A stretch of DNA of 64,000 bases from Gammaproteobacteria bacterium (GCA_045107075.1 JBGCFV010000047.1:17351-81350); one strand, 5' to 3'. Shown: positions 4,864-59,953, counted from the stretch's first letter. The notes: generated from the sequence alone by a model not told the origin. A program made the numbers and translations.

Positions 4864-5475
4864 TCAGAAGTCTGCTGTTTCTTTAAACTTAAAGCGTACG
4901 GTAATACTCTGAACGCCATCAACGATCTTGATATCTCTCACCGCGCCGAAAAGCCCCTGCTCTTTTGACCGAAGCTTCATTTCTTTTGTAACCGCCGGGT
5001 CATCTGACAGAAAGATTTTGGTCGCCCACTGTCGCCCGAACTCCTCTGACTCAAGCGTAAAATGAAGATGAGCGCCTTCCCGGTGAAGGTGATCTGGAGC
5101 AGGTCGAATCGTCTTAAACTGAAACTTCCCGTCTACATCTGTTTGTATCCAACCCTGAAGCTCCCAGGTTGTAAATTCCCGGTCGTTGGTTCCCAATTCG
5201 AAACCGTCATGATCCCGGTGATACGCGTGCACGATCACGTCGCTCGCGGGCGTTCCATTTGGCTGTAAAACGGTGCCATTGATGACAAGCGGCGTGCCCG
5301 GCTCGTCTTCAGTCGCAATCGTACTGTGAGAGACCAACACGGCCGGTCGTCTCTCCTGCGCCTCAGCCCAGCTCTTTAGCCACGCCGGGTCTGCTTGAGC
5401 GTGGCTGCTCTCGATTACAAACGTAGCGCTCACCGTGATCAAAATGCTCAGCTGCAAGATGTGCCTGATAGTCAT
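4864..5475 (-). CDS. secreted intradiol ring-cleavage dioxygenase-fold protein
   Basis: Signal peptide (..TFVIESSHAQA). GTPLVINGTVLQPNGTPASDVIVHAYH, GWIQTDVDGKFQFKTIRP and GAHLHF match the conserved blocks of the intradiol dioxygenase C-terminal domain. Confidence 0.65.
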   Translation of the reverse strand: MTIRHILQLSILITVSATFVIESSHAQADPAWLKSWAEAQERRPAVLVSHSTIATEDEPGTPLVINGTVLQPNGTPASDVIVHAYHRDHDGFELGTNDREFTTWELQGWIQTDVDGKFQFKTIRPAPDHLHREGAHLHFTLESEEFGRQWATKIFLSDDPAVTKEMKLRSKEQGLFGAVRDIKIVDGVQSITVRFKFKETADF

Positions 5476-5784: not shown

Positions 5785-6381
5785 CTATCTAGAGCCGCGC
5801 AACAGTCGAATTCCGCTCAGGGCAGAAAGAAAGAGTAGCGCCGCACCGGGTAGAGGGACCTTCGTAGTTTCATATTGAATGCCGACTTGAACAAAATCTT
5901 GAAAGTTGTCTTGATTTGCTACGAACTCGTCATTTTGAATTAACACATGGAAGCCACCGCTCAGTAGCAACTCGTCCAGTAAAAACTGCTCCACCTCAAA
6001 TTCAAACGAGATCATGACATCGAGTAGCGGATCGGTGAACAGAAAATCAAAGTTAAGTAAATTGAGGCCTTCAATTGTGTCATCTCTTACGCCTATAGAG
6101 GTTAACTCAATCGTTCCGGGAATAGATTCAAAGCTTAAATTCGCTTTTTCCCCAAACGGCTGCGTGTAATCACCGCGTGCAACAAATGTGAGCAACGCAC
6201 CGCTTCCGTCACTCTCGGGCAGGTCTGAGAACTTGATATCAAAAAACTGGCCGTCCTCGTCTATGTTTTCTGTCGCCTCGTAAGAAAACGTTGACGCTTC
6301 AACCTTACCCGGAGCTACCCAGCAGATAGCGAGAGTAACGAGAACAAGAATGGATAGCGAAAGAGTGTATTTGTGAGTCAT
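5785..6381 (-). CDS. secreted protein with VPLPA/PEP-CTERM-type sorting tail
   Basis: N-terminal signal peptide. The C-terminus KVPLPGAALLFLSALSGIRLLRGSR* has the motif, hydrophobic helix and basic cluster that define exosortase substrates. Confidence 0.6.
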   Translation of the reverse strand: MTHKYTLSLSILVLVTLAICWVAPGKVEASTFSYEATENIDEDGQFFDIKFSDLPESDGSGALLTFVARGDYTQPFGEKANLSFESIPGTIELTSIGVRDDTIEGLNLLNFDFLFTDPLLDVMISFEFEVEQFLLDELLLSGGFHVLIQNDEFVANQDNFQDFVQVGIQYETTKVPLPGAALLFLSALSGIRLLRGSR

Positions 6382-6559: not shown

Positions 6560-6596
6560 AACGATTCAAAAGAACCGGCCAGCAAATGCTGGCCGG
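6560..6596 (-). terminator. rho-independent terminator candidate after the 1330-aa gene
   Basis: Stem CCGGCCAGC (6575-6583) pairs with GCTGGCCGG (6588-6596) around loop AAAT. On the minus strand it is followed by TTCTTTTGAATCGTTTG. Confidence 0.5.
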
Positions 6597-6608
6597 CGTC
6601 CTTAGGTG

Positions 6609-9600
6609 TTAAGTCCCACAACTCGTGTTGAGTGCGCTTGGACCAGGCGGGTTCAAGAAACGCGACTGGAACGGCGCAATGTCGATAAAGTTAACCACAC
6701 CGTCGCCATTGATATCTGTATCAAGATCACCGGTAGACAGGAAGTCTCCGGTGAGTATCGCAAGGTCAACGAAGTTGACGATGCAGTCGTTGCTGAAGTC
6801 AAAATCGCACACGTTGCCGATACCGTCACCGTTTGAGTCACGTTGATCAGCGTTTGCGTCTAACTGACAGTTGTCGAGCGTGTCAGTGATACCGTCTGAA
6901 TCATTGTCCCCTACCGTTAACCACTCAAAGCTAACCGATGTTTGTAAGCCGCTTGACCCGGTAGTGGCGGTAAGAGTGACTGTATACGTACCACCAAGAC
7001 CCGCGGTGGCACCCGATATAACGCCTGTGTTTGCGTTGATGCTCAGGCCCGCTGGTAAACCGTCAGCGACGTATGAAATGGCGCCCGAGTTGTTGTCGCG
7101 AGCTGTAACCGCGACATTAACCACATCGCCCACGTTGTTTTGCTGCGTACCCGGGTTCAGCACGTACGGCGGGAAGTTTCCATTGGGCGCGGAAGCGGCC
7201 GGCTCGCTATCGTCAATTTGCAACAGATAGCTGGCCAGGTTATCGAGGTCGCTGGCGCCGAGACTTGTGACGTCTATGCCAACCGTAGCCTCGTTAGTGT
7301 GAGCGAGTATGGCTTGTTGCACGGTGGCTGCTGAACCGTCGTGCAGGTAAGGCGCACCGTGCCAGAGTCCGCGCAGCGTTGGTGTATCAAGCCCCCCATC
7401 CACCAACGGCGTTCCGAGGCGCCCACCTGTATCGGCGTCAACGGTTCCAACATTGTGGAAGAATCCGCCCAATGGGCTGTCGGTGAACTCGCTGTTCGCG
7501 TGGCAACGACTACAGTTAGAACTCGCGAACAACGCTTGTCCGGCCTGACCGTCTGTGGTCAGGTTGCCATTGCTGGCTCGATTTGGGCTGTCGCCCACCG
7601 AGTTCAGCGTAGCCGTGTAGCCAGCCAGAGCGTCTAGGTCGACGTTCAAACCACTCTTCGGCACACCCAGCGTGTCAGATGTCAGGGCAAAGTCCGCGTT
7701 GGAAAGCAAGCCTGTACCATCGAATACGCCACGAATGTCGTTTTCGAAATCGTGAATCTCGTCGAAGTTAGCCGTCCAGTGTACGTTGCCGTGAGCAATA
7801 CCACCGCGACCACGCAGGTCGATAGTGTTGCGCAAGCCTTCGCCGCCGTCGGAGAAATCCCACGTGCGACCATCGTGACCTGCATCGTCGTGACACGTAG
7901 CGCACGAGATATATGCTTGAGAACTCAGACGTGAATCAAACGCATCGAAGAACAGCTTCTTACCGGTCAGCACAAACGGGTTGAGCGTTTCGGCGACAAC
8001 GGTCGCTACTTCGGCATCCAGCGAAATGCTGTTTTCGATACCCTGCATTAAATTGCTGGCATCGTAGACTCCGACCGTGCGGTCAAGATAGTTATGCACG
8101 TACAGAAGCTCACCGTCAGGCGACAGCGCAATACCGCGCGGCGCAGTTCCGGCTGTTCGCGTCACAATAATTTGATTGGCGTATACGTCGAGCACGTGAA
8201 TGGAACGACTGCCCTCGTGAACCACGTACAAGTGGTTTCCGTTTGGACCAAACAGAGCCGCCGTGGGCTGGCTGTTGTCGTCGAAGTCAAAGCGTTCTTC
8301 TACCAACTCCTGCTGAGCCGTCATGTCCAGACGCGCCAGCAGACTTCTGACCAAGCGGTCGTGCTCGCGAGGGTTTCCGTCGCGGAACGAACCGCGATAG
8401 ATGTTGCTGATGTTGGAAGGCACAACGCCTACGGTTGCGTCCGGAGATAAAGCGGCACCCATTACGTAGTTTGGAACACCTCGCGATGAATCCTGCGTAT
8501 CAATTTCATCGTTGTACGCCAGCACCATCGTATTCAGAACGGTCATACCGCCGGTATCCACTCTCGCCACTTCACCACCGCCACCGGTCGTTACGTTACG
8601 AGTGCTTTCGCCGGGAACCGGAGCCGTAATAAAGCGCGACACATACAGCTCGCTGCCGTCGGCGTTGAGCGCCAAATCGCGAGGTCTGAAATCAAGTGCG
8701 AGCGAAGAGTCAATCTGGTTCAGTGCCAGATTAATTTTGACGACACGTTGCTCGGCGAGCAGAGAGACGTAGGCAGCCGTGCCGTCGCTGTTAACCACAA
8801 TCGAATGCGGGCTGGCACCGTAGTCGAACGACATCACCGTCGAGACTGCGAACGTGTTTGTATTGATTTCGGAGATAGAGTGCGAATCGCGGTTAATTGC
8901 CCACAGCGTGTTGACATCAATTTGAGCAATACGCGTTGGATTATCTCCTACACTGATTTCCTGCAAGAACAACTTATTTGGAACGTTAATGGCCGTAACC
9001 GAATCGTTGTCAGTGTTTACAGTCCAAACCAAATCGTCAGCACCTGCACGCTCTTGATACAAAATAGTGCTGGATGAAACGGGCTTCGTTGCCGATAACG
9101 GTGCATGCACGTTCTGGAAGAAAATAAACTGATCAGAGCCAACCGTGTCGGTCAGCGTAACCGTAACCTGGTAGCGGCCAGGTTCTGCAAAGGTATACTC
9201 GAGCGTAGGATCGGTGCCGGTAAACTCTTTACCACCATCACTAATACTCCACGAGAACTCGGGGGCTACCCCACCTGTGACAGTGACTTCCATTGTGCCA
9301 GCAACGCCCGCTTCGAGAGTAACCGGGACAATTCCACTGAATTCAACAATCGCTGGTGCTGCGTCGTTAATGTAAATTGCGTAACGACCTTCGTGAGCGA
9401 AAACCAAATCCTGGTTACCGTCAATGTTAACGTCGGTAATCACAACGTCGTAGGATTCTTCTACTCGCCACTCCGGGTCCGCAAAGACGTCAAAGTTGCC
9501 TGAGAAATTGCCCGTGGTGATAACCATTTCATTCAATTCATTCCGCGGATCTGGATTCAAACCCGTACCCAGCATTTCAATACTGGACATGATGTAGTCA

Positions 9601-10601
9601 GGGTCACCATCGTTGTCGAGGTCACGTATAAACGCAAAGCCGTGCTTGCCGTTGTCACCAATCATGTCAGGGTCAAGTCGTTTCAGGTAGTCGACGAACC
9701 CACCGGTCATGGTTCCTTCGCTTATAAACGCCGTTGGACTGAAGTTGTCGGCATAGACTCGCATGTCAATCATGTTGTCGCCGTTAAAATCGGCGCCAAC
9801 AGGCATGTAGGTCAGGTTGTCGAGGTCGAGGTTCTGTATTCCGGAGTTTGGAAAGTTGCCGTTGCCGTCATTGTAGAATATTGACTGCACGTTCTCTGAG
9901 CCGGCGATACCAATAATGTCCACATCTCCGTCATTTTCAATATCAGCGAGCTGGATCTTGCCCACCGAGTCGAGCACGTTAGAGCCAAGGCGACCGGTGG
10001 TTTCATTCGTAAACACGCCGCTGCCATTGTTGACCAGGTAGTTGCGACTACCGTTTGAACGCAACAGGATAAAATCCATGTCTTCGTCACCGTCCAGGTC
10101 GGCTGACTCAACCATCGTCACACGGCTTGACGCAACGCTTACCGTAGTGCCGCCGTCAAAACCCAACCAGTTGCCGTTACCGTCATCACCGTTGTTCAAA
10201 TAAAGTGCGGGACGTTCGTCGACTCGACCAAAAAACAAATCGCTCCAGCCGTCGCTATTGACGTCGACAATTTCAACGTCGTAGCTGTTACTGCCGAGCC
10301 CCGTGCCGCCAAACAGCGCAGCGCTATTGGTAAGCACTCCGTTTAGATTGAGAAACAGTCGCGGCACGTCACCACGGCGAGCGACAACAATGTCCTCAAT
10401 GCCGTCGTTGTTCACATCACCAAGCGCGAGCTTTTTAACGCGGGTATCACTAACGGACACGCCGGCCAGATCAAGGTGATTTGTAGTGCGTTCATCGAAC
10501 ACCGGTTCGGCGAAAACACTTACGGACAAAGCCAGCCCTGTAAGACCCAACAACAAACGTTCGCGCGCGCGAGTGAATCGGCGAGAATCTTTATACGTCA
10601 T
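6609..10601 (-). CDS. giant exported mosaic protein: FG-GAP/VCBS repeats, PKD, beta-propeller repeats, di-haem cytochrome c peroxidase-like domain, Ig-like domain, TSP3/dockerin-like C-terminal cassette
   Basis: Signal peptide (..LSVSVFAEP). Repeated Ca-loop motifs: DVNNDGIEDIVV, DVNSDGWSDLFF, DLDGDEDMDFIL, DIENDGDVDIIG, DLDNDGDPDYIM, DVNIDGNQDLVF. PKD-like YTFAEPGRYQVTVTLTD. Propeller-like repeats: GNHLYVVHEGSRSIHVLD and DGELLYVHNYLDRTVGVYD. Two CxxCH haem sites (CATCH at 7890-7904, CSRCH at 7510-7524) plus PYLHDGS, as in CCP/MauG enzymes. GLPAGLSINANTGVISG is Ig-like. The C-terminus is DNDSDGITDTLDNC..DSNGDGIGNVCD..DINGDGVVNFIDIAPFQSRFLNPPGPS. Confidence 0.85.
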   Translation of the reverse strand: MTYKDSRRFTRARERLLLGLTGLALSVSVFAEPVFDERTTNHLDLAGVSVSDTRVKKLALGDVNNDGIEDIVVARRGDVPRLFLNLNGVLTNSAALFGGTGLGSNSYDVEIVDVNSDGWSDLFFGRVDERPALYLNNGDDGNGNWLGFDGGTTVSVASSRVTMVESADLDGDEDMDFILLRSNGSRNYLVNNGSGVFTNETTGRLGSNVLDSVGKIQLADIENDGDVDIIGIAGSENVQSIFYNDGNGNFPNSGIQNLDLDNLTYMPVGADFNGDNMIDMRVYADNFSPTAFISEGTMTGGFVDYLKRLDPDMIGDNGKHGFAFIRDLDNDGDPDYIMSSIEMLGTGLNPDPRNELNEMVITTGNFSGNFDVFADPEWRVEESYDVVITDVNIDGNQDLVFAHEGRYAIYINDAAPAIVEFSGIVPVTLEAGVAGTMEVTVTGGVAPEFSWSISDGGKEFTGTDPTLEYTFAEPGRYQVTVTLTDTVGSDQFIFFQNVHAPLSATKPVSSSTILYQERAGADDLVWTVNTDNDSVTAINVPNKLFLQEISVGDNPTRIAQIDVNTLWAINRDSHSISEINTNTFAVSTVMSFDYGASPHSIVVNSDGTAAYVSLLAEQRVVKINLALNQIDSSLALDFRPRDLALNADGSELYVSRFITAPVPGESTRNVTTGGGGEVARVDTGGMTVLNTMVLAYNDEIDTQDSSRGVPNYVMGAALSPDATVGVVPSNISNIYRGSFRDGNPREHDRLVRSLLARLDMTAQQELVEERFDFDDNSQPTAALFGPNGNHLYVVHEGSRSIHVLDVYANQIIVTRTAGTAPRGIALSPDGELLYVHNYLDRTVGVYDASNLMQGIENSISLDAEVATVVAETLNPFVLTGKKLFFDAFDSRLSSQAYISCATCHDDAGHDGRTWDFSDGGEGLRNTIDLRGRGGIAHGNVHWTANFDEIHDFENDIRGVFDGTGLLSNADFALTSDTLGVPKSGLNVDLDALAGYTATLNSVGDSPNRASNGNLTTDGQAGQALFASSNCSRCHANSEFTDSPLGGFFHNVGTVDADTGGRLGTPLVDGGLDTPTLRGLWHGAPYLHDGSAATVQQAILAHTNEATVGIDVTSLGASDLDNLASYLLQIDDSEPAASAPNGNFPPYVLNPGTQQNNVGDVVNVAVTARDNNSGAISYVADGLPAGLSINANTGVISGATAGLGGTYTVTLTATTGSSGLQTSVSFEWLTVGDNDSDGITDTLDNCQLDANADQRDSNGDGIGNVCDFDFSNDCIVNFVDLAILTGDFLSTGDLDTDINGDGVVNFIDIAPFQSRFLNPPGPSALNTSCGT

Positions 10602-10911
10602 GACAACCTCTTATCCACGATTTAATGCCCCATGCCAGTACTCCGGCTTAAACAAGTCTGACGCCTGTTGTTTTTTTCGTGTGACGTTCGAGACCCGACT
10701 ACCCCTAACTCTAGCAAAAAATGCCGGCCCACCTTCTGAATGGTCGGTTTTTCAGCACATTACGTAGATTGACTTTGGTTATACCAACCGTACCGACCAG
10801 CCGATTCGTGTGGCGCAAAACCAAGACAAAGGCTGCAATGGTCTCGATCGCCCTTTATACCTGCAAAACCTTGCAGCTATGCCGCCAAAAATGAATGTTT
10901 TCCAAACAAAT

Positions 10912-10934
10912 ACAGCCGCCCCAAGGGCGGCTGT
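10912..10934. terminator. bidirectional hairpin terminator candidate downstream of sppA
   Basis: ACAGCCGCCC (10912-10921) pairs with GGGCGGCTGT (10925-10934). Both flanks are T/A-rich (TATTTCGTTT on plus, ATTTGTTTGG on minus). Confidence 0.45.
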
Positions 10935-26350: not shown

Positions 26351-27214
26351 TCAGAAACCCGCACTCGGACCAGGCGGCATAAAAAACAGCTCGCTCATCA
26401 CCAAAAAGTCGACAAAGTTAACCACACCGTCACTGTTAAAATCAGCGACCTCGTCGTTAGATAAGAAGAGCATTGAGAACTGACTCAAGTCGATAAAGTT
26501 AACTATTTTATCGCCGTTCAAGTCTGGGTCACAGGCGTTACCAAACCCGTCAAAGTCGGCGTCCTCTTGACCCGGATTGGCTGCTAGCGTGCAATTGTCA
26601 GATGAGTCGGGTACCGCATCTCCGTCTGCATCAGCTTCGACAATATCTTGACAGGTAATCGGCTGAGATCCGCCGCTGTTAATTTGGCAAATCACTTTAT
26701 CGCCCGCGCTACTGGTCAGGTAAGCAAACGCAAGATTCACCCCGACTCGCGAAGGCTGGCCTGATGTTTCCATCCACGTAAAGTTACTACTGGTTGCGAC
26801 CAGCGGATCAGCAAACTAGCTTTCATTCCTGTCCACCACTACCTGAGTAAACCCCGGTCCAAATAGTGTATTGAAATCGGTAAGATCAGGCACACCGGAC
26901 GTAAAAAGATAAATGGGAATATCCGGCGTGCCCGTTTCAAACACCAGCTGGGAATCCCAGGTGGCTGGGTCAAAAATCGCGGACGTCCAACCGGTCAGAC
27001 CTGTATCAGAACTGTTTGCCGCTGAATTAATGTGTCCCCACGCTGCCATCCGCCAAATAGCTCCAGGCGGCACAGGTGGCTGATTGATGGTAACTGTGTA
27101 GATACCACCGTCACCGTCCAGAATAGGCACTTCAGTGACATAAACGTCGGGAAGACTACCTGCGTAACCGCTCGATGCGAACAGGCACAATAAAATACTG
27201 GCTATTTTCTTCAT
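26351..27214 (-). pseudogene. secreted TSP3/dockerin-cassette protein gene interrupted by one in-frame TAG
   Basis: ORFs 26816-27214 (signal peptide MKKIASILLCLFASSGYAGS) and 26351-26773 (cassette ending FFMPPGPSAGF) are in the same frame. The span is 864 nt, or 288 codons. The only interruption is TAG at 26816-26818. The 14 intervening codons (FADPLVATSSNFTW) are open. Confidence 0.55.
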
Positions 27215-29894: not shown

Positions 29895-31757
29895 TTACTC
29901 GGCTGGACTATTGCAAGATGGCCCTGGTGGCATCAGGAACATCCTGGACAAACGCGAAAGATCAATAAAATTAACCGCCCCATCTCCATTCAGATCATAG
30001 ACTGCGTTTCCCGTTAGAAAATTGTCCGACCATTCTGCGATATCAAGAAAATTCACAACACCCGAGTTATCGAAATCTCCGTCACAGGAATTACCATGCC
30101 CATCCCCATCTGAGTCCAGCTGAATATTACCGCCGTCGTCTGTTTCAAGCGGGCCATTCGGAACGTTAATGCAGTTATCGCCACACATGGCAACCGCATT
30201 CGCACAGCTCCCCAGAATACATTGAACGCTTACGGTATAACCTCCGGTCGAGAGACCATTAAGATCGCGTATGAGCAATGAATAGGCGCCCGTTATTTGG
30301 GGGACAAACTCTCTGCTGAACGAACAACTGTCGAGACAGCTGTACATATCTTCAACACCATTTATAACCAGATTATTATTTGGGTCGCGAATCTCAACTG
30401 TTGGATCAAGAAAATTGGCAAATGACGTTACGGAGATCTGAACCAGGTCATTTTGAGTGCCGCCAAAGAGAAAAATATCTGCATCGATTGCGGGTGAAAT
30501 CTCATCGGACGCGACAGTGCCATAACTCAACACCGCGGGCGTGTCGTAGCTAACACGAGGGTTTCCATCAACAACGCCGTCTGCGTCACTGTCACACGGA
30601 CCGCTAATGCACCACATAGAAATATCATAGCCTCCGGTCGATATTCGCCCCCGATCGCGTATAAGCACAGAATACATTCCATCCAGAGTCGGCACGAGAT
30701 CTACAGTAAATGAACAGCTATCCAGGCACTGTGCGCCATCTAAAACACCGTCTATTACCAGAACATTATTAGGATCACGAACTTCAATAGTTGGGTCCAT
30801 GAAGTTACTGAAAGCCGACGCGCTGATACGAATCTCTGTACCCACGGTTGCGTTTATACGATAAAAATCTGCATCAACGTTGGGTTCAATCTCGGCACTG
30901 ATCTCCGATACGTAAGAAAGCAAATTACCCTTCTCGTCCGGCGCACCATCACCATCACTGTCGCAGTCACCCGAGATACACCACAGGCTAATGTTGTATG
31001 CGCCAGTTTCAAAGCTTAACCGATCGTACACAGCCACGGAGTACCAACCGTCAACGTCCGGCATAACGTCTTTGGAGAACGCGCAGCCATCCAGACAAAA
31101 CGCACCATCGTCAACACCGTTTACAATGAATGACCCATCCGGACGGCGCACTTCAAAAACCGGGTCCATAAAATTAGCCAGCGCTGACCCGTTAATGCGA
31201 ACTGCCGTACCGGTGACACCATAGAACCGGAAGAAGTCACTATCTGTATGAGGGGCTATTTCGTCGACCAGAGTTTCGTCATAACTCAAAAGCTGAGAAC
31301 TCGAAAACGCCGGATAGTGACGCTCGAGTTGCAGCGTATAATCACCGGTAGACTGAGTACTGTTGTCAGATAAAAACAACGTATGGCAGCCTGAATCAAC
31401 AACGGTATAGTTCAATGTTAATGCACAGCTATCAAGACACACCTCCTCAGCCACAATTACCCCTGAAGGGTTGCGAACCACAAGTTTCGGGTCGAGAAAA
31501 CTCGCCAACGCCGCAACTTTGATATTGACTTCATCACCCACCTCCGGACAGAACTCGAATCGGTCTAAGTCTGAAGGGTCATCAATATCACAGCCCGTCG
31601 TGTGCTCCCCGTACTGTAAGAGCTGCACTGATTCATCCGTTGCGCACGCTATTGAAACTTCCGTCTGCTGCGCAAAAGCGGTGGCTGAAAAACCAAATAC
31701 CGCAACTAATACACTGCACCAAAACGCTTTAAATATAGATCGAATCCACTCTTTCAC
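29895..31757 (-). CDS. secreted protein with four tandem PPC (pre-peptidase C-terminal)-like repeats and the TSP3/dockerin-like cassette
   Basis: Signal peptide (..GFSATAFAQQ). There are four repeats of about 115 aa. Each has the blocks D.D.F.F, (A/S)NF(M/L)DP..E(V/I)R.P, C.D(S/G)C.F, G.YS..(V/I).D and GGY.(I/V)S. The C-terminus is DSDGDGHGNSCD..DLNGDGAVNFIDLSRLSRMFLMPPGPS. GTG start. Confidence 0.75.
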   Translation of the reverse strand: MKEWIRSIFKAFWCSVLVAVFGFSATAFAQQTEVSIACATDESVQLLQYGEHTTGCDIDDPSDLDRFEFCPEVGDEVNIKVAALASFLDPKLVVRNPSGVIVAEEVCLDSCALTLNYTVVDSGCHTLFLSDNSTQSTGDYTLQLERHYPAFSSSQLLSYDETLVDEIAPHTDSDFFRFYGVTGTAVRINGSALANFMDPVFEVRRPDGSFIVNGVDDGAFCLDGCAFSKDVMPDVDGWYSVAVYDRLSFETGAYNISLWCISGDCDSDGDGAPDEKGNLLSYVSEISAEIEPNVDADFYRINATVGTEIRISASAFSNFMDPTIEVRDPNNVLVIDGVLDGAQCLDSCSFTVDLVPTLDGMYSVLIRDRGRISTGGYDISMWCISGPCDSDADGVVDGNPRVSYDTPAVLSYGTVASDEISPAIDADIFLFGGTQNDLVQISVTSFANFLDPTVEIRDPNNNLVINGVEDMYSCLDSCSFSREFVPQITGAYSLLIRDLNGLSTGGYTVSVQCILGSCANAVAMCGDNCINVPNGPLETDDGGNIQLDSDGDGHGNSCDGDFDNSGVVNFLDIAEWSDNFLTGNAVYDLNGDGAVNFIDLSRLSRMFLMPPGPSCNSPAE

Positions 31758-31921: not shown

Positions 31922-32524
31922 ATGCCTGAATCAGGAAACAATTCAAATTCTTCTGATCGTTTTTTAGTGTACGAGAACGAGGATCCGGTTACATCCACAG
32001 ATGACAAAGCCCTTTATCGTGAGCTTCATCGCATCGCCGCTTATCTGATGTCCGCCGAACAAGCCGGTCACACTTTGCAGCCAACCGCTCTAATTAATGA
32101 AGCCTGGCTTCGCTTAAATCAGAGTAACTCCATAGAAACTGAAAATCGGCAGCACTTTGTTGCGGCTGCAGCGTTGCAAATGCGCCACGCGCTGGTTGAT
32201 CATGCACGTCGAAAGAACGCCGCCAAACGTCCATCTCGTGGACTTCGACTATCTCTCAATCAATACGAAAGCAGCGACGAAATCACTTTCAGCAACCAAG
32301 CTACAGAGATTGTTGATATCTGCCTTGCAATAGAGAAGCTGGAAAAACGGAACGCCCGCCCTGGTCAGGTATTTGAGCTGCGTTATCTGGGTGGACTGAG
32401 TGTTCCGGATTGCGCCAACTACCTCAACGTGTCGGAACGTACCGTTAAAAGCGACTGGAAGTTCGCCAGCGCCTGGATTGCCCGACACCTTGAACTAACG
32501 CACGAGAAGCCACAGCAAAAATAA
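31922..32524 (+). CDS. ECF-type RNA polymerase sigma factor (Sigma70_ECF / TIGR02999-like)
   Basis: 200 aa. GHTLQPTALINEAWLRL is the hallmark region-2 block of this subfamily. The region-4 HTH is LRYLGGLSVPDCANYLNVSERTVKSDW. Confidence 0.8.
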   Translation: MPESGNNSNSSDRFLVYENEDPVTSTDDKALYRELHRIAAYLMSAEQAGHTLQPTALINEAWLRLNQSNSIETENRQHFVAAAALQMRHALVDHARRKNAAKRPSRGLRLSLNQYESSDEITFSNQATEIVDICLAIEKLEKRNARPGQVFELRYLGGLSVPDCANYLNVSERTVKSDWKFASAWIARHLELTHEKPQQK

Positions 32525-32555
32525 AATCACCTTCCGGAAGACACCGCACAAAAAG

Positions 32556-35255
32556 TTGCGACAGGACACCAGAGTCATGGCCACCATACAGCACGATGCT
32601 ATTGCGACTATCTTTTCCCACGCAAGCTCTCTTGACGAGGAGCAACGCAATTGCTATCTGGATGAAGTCTGCGCCGGCAATCCGGAACTCCGTACCGAAA
32701 TAAATAATCTGATGCGGCATGCGGAAGCCGGCAGCACCCGATTTGGCATAGCACCTGATTCACATCGCTTGCAAACATTATCGCAGATTGTGGCCATGCC
32801 AAAACATGTCGGACCCTACCGTTTACTCGACATTTTAGGCAACGGCGGCATGGCCATCGTTTATCTGGCGAAACAGGAATCTCCACAGCGCCAGGTTGCC
32901 TTAAAGATGATTAAGCTGGGCATGGACTCTGAGCAAATCCTTCATCGGTTTGACGCCGAACGTGAAGCGCTCGCGACTATGCGACACGAGGGTATCGCCA
33001 CTATCTTCGACGCCGGCTTGAACGAAGATGGTCGGTCGTATTTTGTAATGGAGTATGTAGAAGGCACAAATATTGTTGAGTTTTGCAAGCATCACACACT
33101 CACGTTGCCCGACCGAATCAGGCTGATTATTCAAGTGTGCCACGCCACGGCACACGCACACCAAAGAGGTGTAATTCATCGCGATTTAAAGCCTTCGAAT
33201 ATTCTGGTTTGTACTGTAAATGGAGAACCGTCTCCCAAAATTATCGACTTCGGAATTGCACGCAGCATATCGGGTCCAAAGAGTAAAGCCAGACCAGTCA
33301 CCCAACACAACCAGATCATTGGAACCCCGCAATATATGAGCCCGGAACAAGCGGACGCTTCCATTCATGACGTAGACACACGTACTGATGTGTACTCACT
33401 CGGAGTGGTATTCCACGAACTGATCATGGGCTGCCGCCCTGCTCTAACTGATTCGACGAAGGTTTCAAGCACGGTCTCGATACAAAAAACGCTGAGTAAG
33501 GTGAGCGATGAAGAACTCAAGGTACTCGCCCAAGAACGTCGCTGTAGCCCCGGCGGTTTCACCAAGTTTCTTGATGGCGACCTCAACTGGATCATGTGCA
33601 AGGCTCTGGAACCGGACCGAAACACCCGTTACGCTTCGATATCAGCCTTCTCCGACGATCTGGATAGCTTTCTGCGAGGACGAGCGGTAAGCGCCCACCC
33701 GCCGAGCCGCCTTTATCAGCTAAGCTGTTTTTTGCGCAATCATACGGCTGGAGTAGCCGCTACCTCAGCTATCGTTCTCGGGCTCATTATTAGTACCGTA
33801 GGACTGGCCATTGGTTTTAATCGAGCGGAAGAAGCGTTACTGGTGGCGGAAAACTCCAGGCAAGTAGCTGTCCAGGCACAACTTGCGATGGAACGGCAAA
33901 GTGCGCTGGCGCAGCTGGAATCACGTCGCGCGCACGAAGTCACAAATTTTATGATCGAGCTATTTGACGTAGCCAGCCCAACAGGGGCTAATACTACCGA
34001 CCTGAATGCGCTTGAATTGCTCAAGCGCGGCGTCAGTAATATTGATAGCGAACTTCGCAATCAGCCGCTAGTGCGCTCCTCGCTGCTTGAAAGCCTGGCT
34101 CGCGTCCACCTGAACCTGGGTCAATATGGTGAAGCGAAGGTACTCGCGGAAGAAGCACTATCCATTATGGAAGAAAAGGCTCGCGACGAGCAATACCTAC
34201 CAGCGCGTGTTCAGGCCTATCGAACACGTGGTCTTACTCATTTCTACCAAGGTGAGTACCAGCCGGCTGAATCCGTTTATCGAAAAGCAATTGAACTGCA
34301 GCTACGTATTGAGCCAAATCAGACTGTCGAATATGCCGAGCTCAAGCACAATCTGGCTAATGCTGTATTCGAACAAGGCGAGCAGCAAGAAGCCTTGACA
34401 CTCTTTCAGGAGACGCTCGAAATCCGTGAGCAGTTACTTCCTGAACCGCATGAAAAAATAGCCGAATCTCTCAACAGCGTTGCATCAGTCCATCGCCGAC
34501 TTGGTAACCTGGAAGAGGCTTTGGAGCACTACCACAAGTCGCTCAAAGTTCGCCACTCATTGGGACAAGACACGCACCCCGATACAGCCATCACGCTAAG
34601 CAACCTGGGCGTCACTCACTTCAACTTAAAACGCTTTGACGAGGCCGAAGTCTATTTGCTGGATGCACTCGCCATGCAAAGAGTCGTTTTTAGGCAGGAC
34701 CACCCTCAGGTAGGGACCGTTTTGGCAAACCTGGGCGCTACGCTTGCGGCATCAAAACAACTCAACAAAGCAAGTACTTACTTAAGCGAGTCGGTAGCAT
34801 GGCACCGAAAAACGCTTGGCCAGAATCATCCTAACACCGCCAACGCCCTTCTAAACCTCGGATCCGTACTACAGCAGCGCGGACAACTGGATCAGAGTGA
34901 AGCGCTCTTCCGGGAGTGTATTGCCATTTACCGCAAGAGCGCGATCAAATCACCCGTTCTTGGGTTAGCCATGGCCAGTCTCTCTGAAACACTGATGCGT
35001 AAAAACGAAATACTGGAAGCACTTACGCTCGCAGAAGAAAGTCACACTCAGCTTGTAACAACATTGCCAGAAAAGCATCCGTGGCTGTATGTGGCCCAGG
35101 CAGCCGTAGGAGCCGCGGAGGGAGCCAATGGCAACGTAACACGCGCCCGCTCGCTGCTAACCGATAGCCTTCCTGTTCTGGCAAAGACGTTTGGCGAGGA
35201 TAGCGCTCGTACCGTTTCTGTACGAAACTACTTGCTCAAGCTTGATACACCTTGA
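32556..35255 (+). CDS. Ser/Thr protein kinase with one TM helix and a long C-terminal TPR array
   Basis: Hanks kinase motifs GNGGMAIVY, VALKMIK, HRDLKPSNILV, DFGIAR and GTPQYMSPEQ. TM helix AGVAATSAIVLGLIISTVGLAIGF, followed by at least 10 TPR-like units. The likely start is the ATG at 32577. Confidence 0.85.
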   Translation: MRQDTRVMATIQHDAIATIFSHASSLDEEQRNCYLDEVCAGNPELRTEINNLMRHAEAGSTRFGIAPDSHRLQTLSQIVAMPKHVGPYRLLDILGNGGMAIVYLAKQESPQRQVALKMIKLGMDSEQILHRFDAEREALATMRHEGIATIFDAGLNEDGRSYFVMEYVEGTNIVEFCKHHTLTLPDRIRLIIQVCHATAHAHQRGVIHRDLKPSNILVCTVNGEPSPKIIDFGIARSISGPKSKARPVTQHNQIIGTPQYMSPEQADASIHDVDTRTDVYSLGVVFHELIMGCRPALTDSTKVSSTVSIQKTLSKVSDEELKVLAQERRCSPGGFTKFLDGDLNWIMCKALEPDRNTRYASISAFSDDLDSFLRGRAVSAHPPSRLYQLSCFLRNHTAGVAATSAIVLGLIISTVGLAIGFNRAEEALLVAENSRQVAVQAQLAMERQSALAQLESRRAHEVTNFMIELFDVASPTGANTTDLNALELLKRGVSNIDSELRNQPLVRSSLLESLARVHLNLGQYGEAKVLAEEALSIMEEKARDEQYLPARVQAYRTRGLTHFYQGEYQPAESVYRKAIELQLRIEPNQTVEYAELKHNLANAVFEQGEQQEALTLFQETLEIREQLLPEPHEKIAESLNSVASVHRRLGNLEEALEHYHKSLKVRHSLGQDTHPDTAITLSNLGVTHFNLKRFDEAEVYLLDALAMQRVVFRQDHPQVGTVLANLGATLAASKQLNKASTYLSESVAWHRKTLGQNHPNTANALLNLGSVLQQRGQLDQSEALFRECIAIYRKSAIKSPVLGLAMASLSETLMRKNEILEALTLAEESHTQLVTTLPEKHPWLYVAQAAVGAAEGANGNVTRARSLLTDSLPVLAKTFGEDSARTVSVRNYLLKLDTP

Positions 35256-43799: not shown

Positions 43800-46115
43800 T
43801 TAGTCCAGCGTTTGTGGCACACACTCTGCAATGCCGCTAGGCCCGGGTGGTTGAAACACAAGCTCCGACAAACGAGCCAGATCCAGAAAATTGACGGTCA
43901 GGTCGCCGGTTAAATCGATAACGCCATCGAGCTCAAGAAACGCTTCGCCTAACAAAAACACATCCAGAAAATTAACCGTACAGTCACCGTTGTAGTCGCC
44001 GTCACAGGCATTACCAAAGCCGTCGCCGTCGGCGTCCGTTTGATCCGGATTTGATACATCGACACAGTTATCAAGGCCATCCTGAACGTCGTCTTCATCC
44101 CGATCAGCGAGGAGCAGTGATGGGGATGCCACTGAAGACAGGTTCCCCGAACCGTTATCAAGACTGTACGCCATGGCCACATTTTCGAACTCGCAGCCTT
44201 GTGGAATCTCCGTTAGCACCAGCTTGCTGCCCGCTACCAGCTCACCGTCTACGCGAAACGCGTTAACACCGCAAATTAAAGTGATGTCCTTTAGCGTTCC
44301 TTCCAACCCCGAATCGATTTCCAGATACAGCTTGCCAGGACTGTGATAAACGTCTGTGCAAGTCGGACAAAACTGCCCTTCTGGCTGACCGTCTGTCCAA
44401 GGTGTCGCCTGCAAACCGAAGTACTGCGACTGGGGACACGGGTTGTCAATATTGGTGCCTGGCTCATAGTTCAGCACGTAGCCTGTACGACAATCGTCGA
44501 ACGCTTCCTGCGAGGTAAACATATCGAGAGCGACCGTGCTGGCTCCCGCAAATAATGAAACAAGCTCAACCTCTGATACGCCGGGCCGAACGTCGTCAGG
44601 AAGAGCGCAATTAAAATCTGGGCAAGGGCCTGCCGTTAAGCTTGTGCACACTTTATCGACTGCACCACAAATACTGATGCGGCGAACTTCGTCGGTGCAC
44701 TCGGATTGTGTTGTATTGCAAAATGCAGCGCTACGACCAAGGTCGACTCCCGAACTATAAAGCTCCTGCATAATCTGGTGCGGGCTTGCGTTGTTCGCGA
44801 TTGTCCACGCCGCGGCGGCGGCCGACGCAACCACCACGCTACCGACTGAACTACCGGTCAATATTTGCGTGGGGAATGGCGTGGCACCCTCATTTACTGG
44901 CGCTACGGCGTGGTCACCAAACGCCGTCAACCTCGGTTCACCCCCCGGCCGGGTTTCCGCTGCCGCCCCGGTTTCGTCAACGGAACTAACGGCGTAAATT
45001 AATGGCCGGTAAGAGCCTGCAATGGTTAACGGGTCGGGCGTGAAACCAAACAGGTTATTGCACATAACGGCATCAGGAGCAGTTACGTCTTCCCAGCCAC
45101 CCGGCAGTATTGGCCCAGTCATAGCCGTTGGCCCGGTGACACGGTTACCGGCTGCTGCAATCACCAGTGCGCCACGACAGGACGCGTAGTTCAGAGCGCG
45201 ATACACTGCCTGAACGGAAACCCGGCTGCTATTGATCGGGTCGTCGTCACCATAAAACGAGTCCCACCCCAAGGAAAGATTGATCACCAGCTTGTTCACG
45301 GAGGCGGCACGCCAGTTCTCGACCTCTGTATAAATAGCGGTAGCCAGCTGACCGATCGTGCCCGCATACCCCCCCTGACTTGGGTCAATGCAAAACCCCG
45401 TATTACTGCCGCACCGCTGCATCGGCAGTGCCAGCTGAGAACGCAACTGAACCGGACAAGGACCTATCGTGGGGCAAATGCTATCGCGCACAATATTAAG
45501 CAACGTAAAGCCGTGAGAGGATACTCCGGAGCCGTTACGGTCTTGATTAAACCCGGTGGGCTCGCTATCCAGAATGGAGAGACGAACGTTTTGCGGACCA
45601 ACCGGCAGCGCGCCGAATGATCCAATTTGCTCCAGAAAAAACTCGCGAAATCCCTCCCACATAAGATTGGCACTATCGCTCGCCATAGGAGCTAGCGACG
45701 CAGAGTCACGATTTAGCTGTGTCAAACATTGGTCAAAGCCTGGATCAACCGAGCACAAACGGTTGGTTAGAGGAGCCGAGTTAGGGTTGGTCACATTGCT
45801 CTCGAACACGCAGTAGTTTGACAGTCCTGTTTGAAACGGTATTTCCGCGTTGTCGAAAAGACGCTGACTGGTCCAGCCCGGAATATCGTCCGGACACGGC
45901 TGCCCGGCGGTTTGGCCTACATATCGCCACGCAGTGTCGGCCGAATTCGGCTGCAGGCAGGCATCGGTCGGCGGTGACAAATTATCGCTACTGCCACAGG
46001 TAATTGATTGCCTCGCCCGACTACTCTCTGCCTCGGCATGAGCAACAGCACTCCAACAGCACACCGTAAACATACACGTAACAAGTGTCAGTAATTGTGT
46101 GATCATCCGTTGCAT
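43800..46115 (-). CDS. exported divergent subtilase (S8-like) with TSP3/dockerin-like cassette
   Basis: Signal peptide (..WSAVAHAEA). The blocks come in subtilase order: LSILDSEP (Asp), SSHGFTLLNIV (His), GALVIAAAGN (oxyanion Asn), LTGSSVGSVVVASAAAAAW (Ser). All diverge from the PROSITE patterns. The C-terminus is DRDEDDVQDGLDNC..DADGDGFGNACD..DLTGDLTVNFLDLARLSELVFQPPGPS. AAGGAG lies 7 nt upstream of the ATG. Confidence 0.6.
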   Translation of the reverse strand: MQRMITQLLTLVTCMFTVCCWSAVAHAEAESSRARQSITCGSSDNLSPPTDACLQPNSADTAWRYVGQTAGQPCPDDIPGWTSQRLFDNAEIPFQTGLSNYCVFESNVTNPNSAPLTNRLCSVDPGFDQCLTQLNRDSASLAPMASDSANLMWEGFREFFLEQIGSFGALPVGPQNVRLSILDSEPTGFNQDRNGSGVSSHGFTLLNIVRDSICPTIGPCPVQLRSQLALPMQRCGSNTGFCIDPSQGGYAGTIGQLATAIYTEVENWRAASVNKLVINLSLGWDSFYGDDDPINSSRVSVQAVYRALNYASCRGALVIAAAGNRVTGPTAMTGPILPGGWEDVTAPDAVMCNNLFGFTPDPLTIAGSYRPLIYAVSSVDETGAAAETRPGGEPRLTAFGDHAVAPVNEGATPFPTQILTGSSVGSVVVASAAAAAWTIANNASPHQIMQELYSSGVDLGRSAAFCNTTQSECTDEVRRISICGAVDKVCTSLTAGPCPDFNCALPDDVRPGVSEVELVSLFAGASTVALDMFTSQEAFDDCRTGYVLNYEPGTNIDNPCPQSQYFGLQATPWTDGQPEGQFCPTCTDVYHSPGKLYLEIDSGLEGTLKDITLICGVNAFRVDGELVAGSKLVLTEIPQGCEFENVAMAYSLDNGSGNLSSVASPSLLLADRDEDDVQDGLDNCVDVSNPDQTDADGDGFGNACDGDYNGDCTVNFLDVFLLGEAFLELDGVIDLTGDLTVNFLDLARLSELVFQPPGPSGIAECVPQTLD

Positions 46116-46136: not shown

Positions 46137-48836
46137 CTACCGCGAAATTAACCGGTAAGCGGCCCAGTCTGCCTGTGGATGCGATTCGATTAACGCTATT
46201 TGTGCCAGCCGTAATGCATGCTCGGGCGCCTGACCACGGATCCAATGAGAGTAAAACTGCTCGATCACCCTATGCGCCATATCGTCACGAACCGGGCGTG
46301 AAGCCGCTAACACCTTCTGGCTTCCTGCCAGTAAAAACGCATTGGCCAGACTCATGCTTTGCGAGGCTGTGCTGGTGGCTTTGGCCGTTTCGCAACCCGA
46401 CAACACGACCAGAGGCGGTGAGTGTTCCAGCGTTAACACATCAGAAATTCCCAAGCCGGAATCTGACCCGAGTTTAAGCTCGCTTCCCCAACCGTATTCA
46501 CCGGCAAACCGTGCGTGCCCCGCAAAGTGAAAAAGATCGCTACGCTGTATGTTCTCTAGCACGCTGGAAAACTGAACCTGCTCGTCAACCAGCGTTTGAT
46601 AAGACCAGGCGAGAGAAGCGGTCAACGTATCTGCGACGTTATTTAGTTCACGACGTGCAGCGGCCAGGTCGCCGCCCGCATCGGCCACCAGTAGTGCGCG
46701 ATTACCTCGCGTTAAAGCGTTTCTTGAACTGGCAATATCCAGACCATAAACAACAGGAACCCGGGAAACCAATGGCTGACCTTTTACGCGAAGGGCATGC
46801 ACATCAATTTCGGCCATAGCGCCCGACACCAACATTCGCAACAACGGCGCCGCCGATATGTCTTCGAAGACGGTTTCAAGCAGACACTCCATTTGTTCAG
46901 ACAGGTCGGTGCGCAGACAGCTCGGCTGCGTAACCCGAAGCGTGGTGCCGTCGTGCGTGAAAAGAGCCCAGGACGTTGGCAATTTCTGAACCAGCACCAA
47001 CAGCTCATTTACTCGAGGAGGTAACAGCGACGGAGACTCAATCTCTCTAAACACATCTGCAGCACCATCTAAAATCTGTCGCAGGCGAGTCTTTCGTGTT
47101 GCGTTTTCACCGGCGAGCTCTACCAGTTCATCGGCCGGCAGCATCCACGCGGACTCCACGGCCACTTCCAACTCTTTACGCAAATCATGATACTCACCAA
47201 GCAGTTGCTCCCACTTCCGTTGAGCAGGCTGCGACAACTGCTCAACGCTGTGAGCTACATTCACGGTATTGAGTGCGCGTCTGCGGGCTTCGCGTGCGAG
47301 CGCAAATGCTTCGTCGTAGCGCTGCACATCTAATAGTAGAGCAATATGTTCATTGGTCACGTTTGAGCGTGCCGTTAGCAAAGCCTCCCTGCCTTGATCT
47401 ATCGGAATTGATGGCAAAACATCGAGCAGTAACCAGTCAGCCTCCATGTACGCGTTAAGCGCCGCCTCCCTATCGCCGGTCGCCGCATAAGTACGTGCGT
47501 GTCCTGCTAAAGCACGCCACTGGGCCTGATGAGAAAGCGTCGCTTTGGCGAGCAGCTGAAGCTCATCGTATTTTCTGTGGGCCAGCTCAAAGTCGCCACG
47601 GTCGAGTGCAATGCGAGCTTCGATGTCCAGTAGCCACAGCGCGCTACGCAGATGCATTGCGTTCGTGTCGCGGGCTTTTTCTATCCACCGCTGCGCACCA
47701 GAAAGATCGTTGGCGTGCCACCGCGCCAAGGCAAGATTGGTTCGGGTATTTATAACGACTGTTGGGCCACATTTCTTCTGAGCCAACTCATCTGCTTTGA
47801 CTAGAAGGTCGGTAGGATCCTCGGAACTCCTACCAGCCTCCAATAGCAGAAGAGCTGCCCAACCCATGTTGGTGAGCGCAAGCGAATGTTCACATGGACG
47901 TATATCGTCAGGCAGCGAACTCCAACGAGACAAATAGGCTAGTGCTTCCTGGCCACGCCCCACTCGCTGCAACTGTACGGCGAGTAACAGTTCGGCGTAC
48001 AACCGCTGCGCCGCCGTACCGGTTCGTTGCGCCTGCAAGGCGGCCTCGTTCAGCCGCGTCAGCGCTGTTCGAGTATTGCTGGTGTTGTAAGCCAGTAAAC
48101 CAAAAAAATAATTCAGGTTATACGCGCTGTCTGCATCGAAGAGCGCGGGTGCTACCGTGTCATTCAAGACCTCGCGTGCTCGCTTGAAATCGCCCTTACT
48201 CATCAGGGTGTAAACAATAACCGTTGACGTGCGCAAGGCATCAGAGTGTTTGCCAGCCTTCATGTCGGCCGCAACGGATTGCGACAGCAGCTCTTCGGCT
48301 TTAGCAATATGACCCAGTCGGCGTTGAGCCTGGCCTAGCAGTCGTAACGCGGCGCCTGCCCAGTGCGGATCAATTGACGACATCGAAGTGTTAAGCAGAA
48401 GAATAGACTCTTCAAGCTTCCCTTCCCGATTCAGTGTTCGGGCGGTTTCAAGCATCTTAGGCCGCGTATTGGACTCAAGTTTCAACGCTGCCGTGCGTAA
48501 ACCGTCGCTAAAACTCAGCGTTGAAACTCCTTTGGGAACGTCGAGTTTAAACCGGGTGCCCCCCAAAACTCTGAGCGTTGTAGCGTTTGATAGCGTAGAC
48601 AGACTCATCCTGTTGCCATCGAAGCCAAACGACACACTATCGCGCAGCCCATGCTCTACCCAGACCGTCAGTGTGCGGCTATCGTTGAGAGTACAGACGT
48701 TTTCCGCAGAAACCGAAGCGCAGCCACTGACCTCAACACGTAGCAGATTGTCGTCCGAAAAAGCCCACGGCATTGTTACAAGCCATAGACTCACTGCGAG
48801 TCTTCGGACTCCATTTTTTGTACGTAGATGACTCAT
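46137..48836 (-). CDS. exported TPR-CHAT domain protein (caspase-like protease fold)
   Basis: 899 aa. Signal-peptide-like N-terminus (RRLAVSLWLVTMPWAFSDD), a roughly 120-aa beta-rich region, then a long TPR array. The C-terminal CHAT domain has the dyad context FHFAGHARF (His codon 46515-46517) and LVVLSGCETAK (Cys codon 46392-46394). Confidence 0.8.
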   Translation of the reverse strand: MSHLRTKNGVRRLAVSLWLVTMPWAFSDDNLLRVEVSGCASVSAENVCTLNDSRTLTVWVEHGLRDSVSFGFDGNRMSLSTLSNATTLRVLGGTRFKLDVPKGVSTLSFSDGLRTAALKLESNTRPKMLETARTLNREGKLEESILLLNTSMSSIDPHWAGAALRLLGQAQRRLGHIAKAEELLSQSVAADMKAGKHSDALRTSTVIVYTLMSKGDFKRAREVLNDTVAPALFDADSAYNLNYFFGLLAYNTSNTRTALTRLNEAALQAQRTGTAAQRLYAELLLAVQLQRVGRGQEALAYLSRWSSLPDDIRPCEHSLALTNMGWAALLLLEAGRSSEDPTDLLVKADELAQKKCGPTVVINTRTNLALARWHANDLSGAQRWIEKARDTNAMHLRSALWLLDIEARIALDRGDFELAHRKYDELQLLAKATLSHQAQWRALAGHARTYAATGDREAALNAYMEADWLLLDVLPSIPIDQGREALLTARSNVTNEHIALLLDVQRYDEAFALAREARRRALNTVNVAHSVEQLSQPAQRKWEQLLGEYHDLRKELEVAVESAWMLPADELVELAGENATRKTRLRQILDGAADVFREIESPSLLPPRVNELLVLVQKLPTSWALFTHDGTTLRVTQPSCLRTDLSEQMECLLETVFEDISAAPLLRMLVSGAMAEIDVHALRVKGQPLVSRVPVVYGLDIASSRNALTRGNRALLVADAGGDLAAARRELNNVADTLTASLAWSYQTLVDEQVQFSSVLENIQRSDLFHFAGHARFAGEYGWGSELKLGSDSGLGISDVLTLEHSPPLVVLSGCETAKATSTASQSMSLANAFLLAGSQKVLAASRPVRDDMAHRVIEQFYSHWIRGQAPEHALRLAQIALIESHPQADWAAYRLISR

Positions 48837-59351: not shown

Positions 59352-59482
59352 GATTATTCCCAAGCATGTAGAGCCAACAGCGGCTGATTCTTGGGGGTGA
59401 CGATTTACGCAGCACTGCATAGGCGAATAAACGCCCAACACAGACTGGTACGGTTCGTGCCGATGGCACAAACTGCACGCTA

Positions 59483-59632: not shown

Positions 59633-59953
59633 GTGCAGGATACGGCTGCTTCGCTGCAAGGTCAATTGCCAGAATGCCAAGTGGCTTAGCCCCCCGAATA
59701 AGCCGGGAAACTCAACTGGCTCTTGGGGTATGCGCATCAAGAGGCCTTTGCTTCGCCGGCCCTTGGCCGACCGCACACCGGCAGCCTGCACGACTCATCT
59801 TGCCGCGATGAAGTACGCGACAACCTGTCTGAAATAAGACGCCCATCGCGGCTGGAAGCCGTTCCTACCTACCTCCGGCGCAAATATCCAGACGGGCACG
59901 GGCCAAGTGCGCATTGCAGCAGGAATTTGAACCCCGAAAGTCTTTAATTCGCC

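Follow-up and report, generated by a model that had tools for sequence, protein, structure and literature searches.

A Gammaproteobacterial FG-GAP Mosaic Protein Built on a Propeller and Di-Haem Unit Related to Hydrazine Synthase β and γ

The Gene and Its Product

The window analysed here, a stretch of 64,000 nucleotides (nt) from a Gammaproteobacteria bacterium (GCA_045107075.1, JBGCFV010000047.1:17351-81350), contains a complete coding sequence of 1330 amino acids (aa) plus a stop codon at 6609..10601(-). The gene starts with ATG, and a Shine-Dalgarno sequence, AAGAGG, is readable 7 nt 5' of the start codon (10607..10612(-)). The encoded protein, 100% identical to a protein named 'FG-GAP-like repeat-containing protein' in an NCBI metagenome-assembled genome of a gammaproteobacterium, belongs to a large family of uncharacterised proteins whose common element is a unit that resembles the β and γ subunits of hydrazine synthase (HZS), and within this family it represents the minority FG-GAP variant.

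The protein is a mosaic, and the inventory of its modules in the initial annotation of this DNA (signal peptide, FG-GAP, PKD, YVTN, cytochrome c peroxidase (CCP)/MauG, Ig-like He_PIG and TSP3/dockerin) was correct; profile searches of Pfam and NCBIfam matched the FG-GAP, PKD, YVTN, CCP_MauG and He_PIG models. A Sec-type signal peptide is predicted at aa 1-31 (10509..10601(-)) from its hydrophobic core and from homolog alignment; it comprises a basic n-region and the hydrophobic core LLLGLTGLALSVSVFA, with predicted cleavage between VFA and EP. The conserved mature sequence of close homologs, EPVFEERTA, starts exactly at this site, while the n-region, including its RR pair, varies among them, which argues for Sec rather than Tat export. 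The Tat route was ruled out on account of the non-conserved RR pair and because c-type cytochromes need Sec. The next region (aa ~40-420; 9342..10484(-)) corresponds to an integrin-α-like FG-GAP propeller, in which Pfam FG-GAP_3 scores 73 bits over five stretches and no Cys is present. It is composed of seven FG-GAP repeats with putative calcium-binding loops of the form Dx[DNE]x[DN][GNE]xxD (at aa 62, 113, 168, 220, 271, 327 and 390, spaced by 50-63 aa), where at least six had been counted earlier.

A PKD Ig-like domain (aa 433-491; 9129..9305(-); Pfam PKD E = 1.6e-8) precedes a seven-bladed YVTN-type β-propeller (aa ~508-867; 8001..9080(-)), delimited by structural modelling and by matches to the archaeal YVTN propeller 1l0q (E = 2.8e-31) and to HZS-β (5c2v_B); the score of the YVTN model TIGR02276, 39 bits, exceeds its cutoff of 27.85. 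An insertion in the propeller holds the invariant loop motifs GxPNY (aa 708-712) and NxxRG (aa 733-737). The di-haem domain of CCP/MauG fold (aa 868-1140; 7182..8000(-)) was delimited by Foldseek and by a family profile compared with HZS-γ; Pfam CCP_MauG (PF03150) reaches 31.8 bits against a cutoff of 25.6, with a match of only 47 aa out of 149 profile positions. The haem-1 attachment motif CATCH (aa 900-904) lies at 7890..7904(-), exactly as annotated initially, and the haem-2 motif CSRCH (aa 1030-1034) at 7500..7514(-), 10 nt away from the position 7510-7524 given earlier. The CCP/MauG-like block GLWHGAPYLHDGS spans aa 1078-1090, and the PYLHDG motif, common to the CCP, MauG, HZS-γ and RoxA families, occupies aa 1084-1089 (7335..7352(-)). 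The C-terminal part is made up of a He_PIG Ig-like domain (aa 1144-1227; 6921..7172(-); Pfam He_PIG E = 2e-13) and a cassette of TSP3-type calcium loops, a double dockerin-like EF-hand and the motif 'FLxPPGPS' (aa 1229-1330; 6612..6917(-)).

Terminator-like hairpins flank the gene: an intrinsic-terminator-like hairpin with a T-run is found 12 nt past the stop codon (6574..6597(-)), and a bidirectional one (10912..10934, both strands) separates the gene from an upstream sppA-like gene for an S49 peptidase. A single-gene transcript is therefore plausible, in agreement with the earlier view of the gene as monocistronic and followed by a rho-independent terminator. A chimeric assembly of the open reading frame (ORF), named with the initial annotation as a possible refutation, was ruled out, as full-length homologs with 58-79% identity occur in independent assemblies, the homolog at 79% identity keeps the upstream gene order HtpG, TRAP transporter and S49 peptidase, and the pair of CxxCH motifs is present in 194 of 194 relatives.

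A Conserved Propeller and Di-Haem Unit

In 52 of 53 related proteins, the segment aa 500-1140 can be aligned without gaps as one block, at 35-83% identity. When 1.84 billion cluster representatives were searched exhaustively with the 641-aa core as a query, 1,352 matches were obtained at E <= 1e-30; the 150 matches listed all have E < 1e-138 and, except for a fragment of 479 aa, span nearly the whole query. In 155 of 189 relatives, a PKD domain immediately adjoins the core on its N-terminal side. The YVTN propeller and the di-haem domain, usually with a preceding PKD domain, form one conserved unit of ~640 aa. The initial picture of a CCP module embedded among adhesin repeats needs correction in this respect, since the YVTN propeller is half of the conserved unit and not a part of the scaffold.

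The AlphaFold model of the core (pTM 0.86, propeller mostly at pLDDT > 90) consists of 28 β-strands arranged in seven blades, followed by a helical domain. When this model was compared with solved structures by Foldseek, a YVTN S-layer propeller ranked first and HZS-β second (TMt 0.74). Generic propellers dominated this search, and the di-haem domain was therefore modelled separately, with moderate quality (pLDDT 71, pTM 0.70). Its top 39 matches in PDB were all CCP/MauG-family proteins (probability 1.00, TM about 0.5-0.6), with HZS-γ (5c2v_C) at the head, followed by Shewanella BccP, MauG, YhjA and MbnH, which confirms that both CxxCH motifs fall in a CCP/MauG fold. The E-values obtained with the family profile were 1.3e-26 for HZS-γ, 4.5e-21 for HZS-β, about 1e-20 to 1e-18 for classical CCPs, 7e-14 for MbnH and about 1e-9 for MauG. 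The best NCBIfam model was that of the HZS βγ fusion (hydrazine_BC), with 65.5 bits against a cutoff of 1250, and a RoxA-like Pfam match was also under its cutoff (22.8 against 26.7 bits). The closest solved relatives of the core unit are the β and γ subunits of HZS, and not the classical CCPs.

Residue conservation was counted over 194 full-length cores. No core deviates in either CxxCH motif, which argues that the pair does not occur by chance, and H941, H1087 (of PYLHDG), D910, D915, R924, E948 and D951 are likewise invariant; E953 and R957 are each kept in 192 cores. W942 (7776..7778(-)), placed 38 aa past the haem-1 His and present in 193 cores, is assigned to the inter-haem position of CCP and MauG from the sequence and not from coordinates. 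The predicted sixth ligand of haem 2, H1101 (7299..7301(-); His in 173 of 194), lies 14 aa past the His of PYLHDG and aligns with the axial Met ('NTMAD') of BccP (3o5c), a position that we take to be that of Met275 in bacterial CCPs. The MauG Y294H variant (3orv) scored 39.9 bits on the family profile, compared with 37.2-38.7 for the other MauG entries listed. Based on the alignment to BccP, with which the score of 3orv is consistent, haem 2 is predicted to be bis-His ligated, like haem γII of HZS, rather than His/Met ligated as in bacterial CCPs or His/Tyr ligated as in MauG. The bis-His γII of HZS has been described as an electron-transfer haem.

The order of modules in the core, a propeller followed by a di-haem domain of CCP fold, is the same as in the β and γ subunits of HZS (Kuenenia, PDB 5c2v; fused βγ in Scalindua). 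HZS provides the best or second-best solved match for each half, and its second haem has a sixth ligand of the His type, as predicted for the target. The differences are nevertheless considerable. Sequence identity is only about 16-24%, the target has no α-subunit partner, it is embedded in a secreted mosaic, and its hosts are aerobic lineages. The core contains only four Cys residues, all in the CxxCH motifs, and Phe aligns with γCys165, so the HZS-specific third thioether bond is impossible. Trp replaces γHis144, and the published non-anammox βγ homologs also have Trp at this position (PMC12758564). Hydrazine synthesis by the target protein is effectively excluded.

The di-haem CCPs of bacteria (P. 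aeruginosa CCP, Shewanella BccP 3o5c, N. europaea 1iqc) share with the target the fold, the pair of CxxCH motifs ~130 aa apart, the Trp assigned to the inter-haem position and the PYxHDG motif. The target differs from them by His in place of the Met of the high-potential haem, by strong divergence past the first CxxCH, and by fusion of the domain to a propeller, whereas the CCPs are free periplasmic proteins of ~35 kDa. The likeness to MauG and MbnH includes the fold, the conserved Trp and the superfamily scaffold, but His occupies the position of the axial Tyr294 of MauG and the target family has no known substrate protein.

Occurrence in Other Bacteria and Partner Modules

The combination of modules had appeared unusual in the initial annotation, but the unit is common. 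A survey of domain order revealed the core in at least 588 species-representative genomes, mostly as part of proteins of 700-3400 aa, with at least one stand-alone version of 681 aa. Gammaproteobacterial hosts include Arenicella (the nearest, at 54% identity), Granulosicoccaceae, Thiotrichaceae, Steroidobacteraceae and Woeseiaceae; many others belong to Burkholderiales, including the cultured Variovorax, Polaromonas, Burkholderia and Methylibium, and further hosts to Verrucomicrobiota, Chloroflexota, Acidobacteriota, Myxococcota and Bacteroidota. Database names of these proteins are generic ('FG-GAP-like repeat-containing', 'DUF1929 domain-containing', 'YVTN family beta-propeller'). Fused βγ-type homologs were reported to be 'highly prevalent in environmental bacteria' (PMC12758564); no published description of the oxidase-fused or FG-GAP-fused mosaics was found in the literature searched.

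The commonest partner is a glyoxal/galactose-oxidase-like (GO) module, which precedes the core on its N-terminal side in 93 of 145 cluster representatives and at 58 of 80 genome loci. Over its whole length this module can be aligned with galactose oxidases of known structure (E = 3e-41); all 96 aligned sequences retain Cys95, Tyr149, Tyr337-His338 and His427, and there are matches to the DMFC, RGY, YHS and VTH motifs, which we take to carry the active-site residues of galactose oxidase. About two-thirds of the relatives carry an intact copper-radical oxidase module, of a type that produces H2O2, upstream of the core. Such an AA5 module is not present in the target, in which aa 1-899 contain no Cys. 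Additionally, a SCO1/SenC-like gene was detected at 17 loci and a fusion gene for MbnP-like protein and MbnH at 19 loci of the GO type, and at two individually inspected GO-type loci SCO1 and PCuAC genes are placed directly upstream. Loci that combine oxidase and di-haem modules with copper-delivery neighbours are found in the set L006-L085 (e.g., L020 1220-2977 and L084 3330-3971), as well as at L003 (7240-7881) and L004 (5397-5843). A description of this apparent one-chain system and its copper-delivery neighbours was not found in the literature that could be searched.

FG-GAP replaces the GO module in only 8 of 145 cluster representatives. When the cores are placed in a midpoint-rooted neighbour-joining tree, the 32 FG-GAP proteins all group in a single clade, and this clade is nested among lineages of the GO type. 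Because of this nesting and this rarity, the target belongs to a derived minority, in which the FG-GAP propeller stands in the position of the oxidase. The association of the two modules has a parallel, as a CRTAC1-family FG-GAP gene lies between the α-like and βγ-like genes of non-anammox clusters (PMC12758564); the fusion in the target joins physically the two modules that are adjacent there, so the link is recurrent. A CHRD domain (PF07452) is fused in 11 FG-GAP members, among them P0014-P0023, and is encoded by an adjacent gene at four loci (L002 6902-7801, L003 12321-12926, L013 3606-4460, L061 3648-4511). The stand-alone core of 681 aa (P0202, locus L086) is accompanied on one side by genes for Mo-hydroxylases of the aldehyde-oxidase type, and on the other by protocatechuate-dioxygenase-like genes and a GMC oxidoreductase gene, a setting of aromatic/oxidative catabolism. 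A dioxygenase link, considered in view of L086 and of the Dioxygenase_C gene of the window (4864..5475(-)), was rejected, as the co-occurrence did not recur in 86 loci.

Possible Function

We favour, with moderate confidence, the view that the protein is an exported H2O2-dependent oxidoreductase of the peroxidase type, acting on an extracytoplasmic substrate. After Sec export, two c-type haems would be attached in the periplasm, giving a calcium-stabilised multidomain haem protein. Its catalytic heart would consist of the PKD domain, the seven-bladed YVTN propeller and the di-haem CCP-fold domain, in the layout of HZS β plus γ. Haem 1 (CATCH), in a predicted pocket of D910, D915, R924, E948, D951, E953 and R957, would be the reactive centre; haem 2 (CSRCH), His/His ligated via H1101, would relay electrons, and W942 would take the inter-haem place known from CCP and MauG. 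The FG-GAP calcium propeller presumably serves as a binding module for the substrate or matrix, and H2O2 for the core would have to come from elsewhere. The use of H2O2 is suggested by the predicted haem-pocket residues, all of which are identical between FG-GAP-type members and GO-type members, whose GO module would make H2O2; the ancestral chemistry of the CCP fold points in the same direction, and the fungal pairing of a secreted peroxidase with a copper-radical oxidase offers an analogy (PMC9770985).

Several points weigh against the proposed peroxidase-type role. The ligands were assigned by sequence alignment only, and the haem loops have low confidence in the models (pLDDT < 50), as expected since the models were built without haem. 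With bis-His ligation, haem 2 should have a low potential, and an electron donor beyond the cytoplasmic membrane is not apparent. The target lacks an H2O2-generating partner both in cis and within the 64-kb window, in which its neighbours are neither functionally linked to it nor conserved across loci, and neither an outer-membrane export route nor a receptor for its C-terminal tail was identified.

The same structural relationships could be read differently. Since the core finds some of its best structural and sequence counterparts in MauG and MbnH, and W942 is conserved, the protein might act as a maturase of their type, in which H2O2 or O2 oxidises protein side chains at a distance via Trp to produce a cofactor or a cross-link, the substrate being either in cis (the propeller or the N-terminal module) or in trans. 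The substrate complex of MauG includes a seven-bladed propeller subunit, and the GO-type relatives carry a Tyr-Cys cofactor and often adjoin an MbnP-MbnH gene. We regard this role as unlikely. The axial position is occupied by His and not by the Tyr that stabilises bis-Fe(IV) in MauG, the cofactor of galactose oxidase forms by itself with Cu and O2, the FG-GAP module of the target offers no Cys or obvious target residue, and the presence of a dedicated MbnH next door suggests a different task for the core. To a similarly low degree of probability, the core could be a module of electron transfer rather than a catalyst, with haems that shuttle electrons between a bound partner (the copper oxidase in relatives) and an external acceptor or donor, by analogy to the cytochrome domains of quinohaemoprotein dehydrogenases and cellobiose dehydrogenase. 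A bis-His haem 2, as predicted here and described for HZS γII, is typical of electron-transfer haems, and the core always occurs either in fusion with further modules or beside redox neighbours. However, the many invariant charged residues around haem 1 exceed what simple transfer needs, the CCP fold is ancestrally catalytic, and the FG-GAP partner has no redox cofactor motif.

The ranking of HZS-γ and HZS-β as the top solved relatives of the two halves, the HZS βγ fusion as the best NCBIfam model and the predicted γII-like second haem would also fit nitrogen-oxide chemistry like that of HZS-γ, e.g., reduction of NO to hydroxylamine or handling of hydroxylamine/NO. The score far below the model cutoff, the lack of a Cys for the γCys165 thioether, the Trp in place of γHis144, the absence of an α-like or other cytochrome gene from the window and the hosts, which represent typical lineages of aerobic heterotrophs, make such chemistry very improbable, and homologs of HZS βγ outside anammox bacteria lack key HZS residues (PMC12758564). 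Nearly as improbable is an ordinary periplasmic CCP that detoxifies H2O2 and has merely gained additional domains. The fold and motifs, the Sec signal peptide and the c-type haem attached in the periplasm would agree with it, but His is found where the high-potential haem has Met, and classical CCPs are less similar to the core than HZS-γ. Moreover, the PKD, He_PIG, FG-GAP and TSP3/dockerin modules, and a tail that recurs in a subtilase-like protein, are characteristic of exported proteins, and some relatives end in GlyGly-CTERM-like anchors.

Of broader scope, and held only tentatively as possible but rather doubtful, is the proposal that PKD, propeller and di-haem domain together define an unrecognised class of secreted bacterial haem peroxidases or peroxygenases on the βγ scaffold of HZS, in most lineages fused to a copper-radical oxidase as their own source of H2O2, and that the derived FG-GAP clade oxidises a bound extracellular polymer or surface with ambient or partner-made H2O2. 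In fungi, glyoxal oxidase is paired with ligninolytic peroxidases. The Perox-AlcOx system of Colletotrichum is a secreted pair of a copper-radical oxidase and a haem peroxidase (PMC9770985), whereas in most relatives of the target the oxidase and the di-haem domain share one polypeptide; the fungal partner is a class II b-haem peroxidase rather than a di-haem c-type domain on a propeller, and the target has no oxidase. If the proposal is true, the oxidase-fused forms would be the bacterial equivalent, on one chain, of the oxidase-peroxidase tandems of fungi. A core active with peroxide would represent an unstudied type of secreted oxidative enzyme widespread in soil, freshwater and marine bacteria, and the oxidase and di-haem fusions would be natural one-chain cascades of interest for biocatalysis in biomass or alcohol oxidation. 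The cultured hosts Variovorax, Burkholderia, Polaromonas and Methylibium make the idea directly testable. The core family also widens the circle of known relatives of HZS βγ, which bears on the origin of the key enzyme of anammox. For the target alone, a minority and oxidase-less member, the significance is more modest, and the interest is greater for the family as a whole.

Export and the Shared C-Terminal Tail

The signal peptide, with its conserved mature start in homologs, makes export of the protein likely, and its location is probably extracytoplasmic, at the surface or extracellular, as judged from sequence features. The initial annotation had contrasted this with CCP/MauG enzymes as normally free periplasmic proteins, but surface and secreted members of the CCP family are known. 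The rubber oxygenase RoxA is a secreted di-haem protein of the CCP superfamily without a propeller fusion. SACCP of M. capsulatus, a surface-located di-haem protein of the same superfamily, also without a propeller fusion, provides a precedent for extracellular placement (PMC3912023).

A cassette of ~95 aa corresponding to the C-terminal tail (TSP3-type loop, double dockerin-like EF-hand and 'F[LF]xPPGPS') is present in five ORFs of the window: at 6612..6917(-) in the target, and in 26351..26773(-), 29895..31757(-), 43800..46115(-) and 50747..52150(-). One of the carriers is subtilase-like, one of 620 aa has four internal repeats, and one of 140 aa is mostly tail. The target tail contains two DxNxDGxVNxxD-like segments and shares 56% identity (E = 7e-23) with its counterpart in ORF 29895..31757, a tail that scores above the Dockerin_1 cutoff. 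Thrombospondin matches to the target tail reach E = 1e-6; Pfam TSP_3 is under its cutoff there, and no Pfam Dockerin match was obtained at E <= 1; no cohesin partner came up either, though none was searched for. The tail looks like a shared, perhaps genome-wide, C-terminal tag on exported proteins. A protein database search with the tail yielded only 11 small proteins, each consisting of the tail alone, and was of little help for localisation. A few relatives end in GlyGly-CTERM-like or PEP-CTERM-like anchors, which supports an extracytoplasmic location. The tethering to the surface postulated initially stems only from the tag common to the five ORFs, for which no receptor was identified.

Among the tail carriers, the 140-aa ORF 26351..26773(-) has no signal peptide, and 43 nt before it, on the same strand, a 132-aa ORF with a signal peptide is encoded (26816..27214(-)); the two may be parts of a single gene interrupted by a stop codon or frameshift. 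The ORF of 198 aa that comes next after the target on its downstream side (5785..6381(-)), with no Pfam or NCBIfam match, has a signal peptide and the C-terminal sequence VPLPGAALLFLSALSGIRLLRGSR, which we take to resemble a sorting signal of the PEP-CTERM/VPLPA type. The subtilase-like ORF with the tail is immediately preceded, on its own strand, by a gene for a CHAT-TPR protein (46137..48836(-)).

Other Features of the Window

The neighbours of the target gene, encoding the S49 peptidase, the TRAP transporter, HtpG, a small dioxygenase-like protein and unidentified ORFs, were considered as operon partners and discarded as unrelated; those downstream (the dioxygenase-like gene and the unidentified ORFs) have no counterparts at other loci of the relatives. 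A search of the window for CHRD, copper oxidase, MbnPH, SCO1 and a second cytochrome gene found none of them. The Rfam scan of the window revealed only a flavin mononucleotide riboswitch (RF00050, 107 bits; 59475..59634(-)), unrelated to the target and located directly upstream of ORF 58695..59471(-). Elsewhere, a gene for an extracytoplasmic function (ECF) sigma factor is followed by one for a Ser/Thr kinase with a long TPR array (31922..35255(+)). At 52351..55064(-), a gene combining DUF4130 with the uracil-DNA-glycosylase superfamily is found directly downstream of a radical SAM gene with a 1-nt overlap, and the two genes are probably an operon pair.

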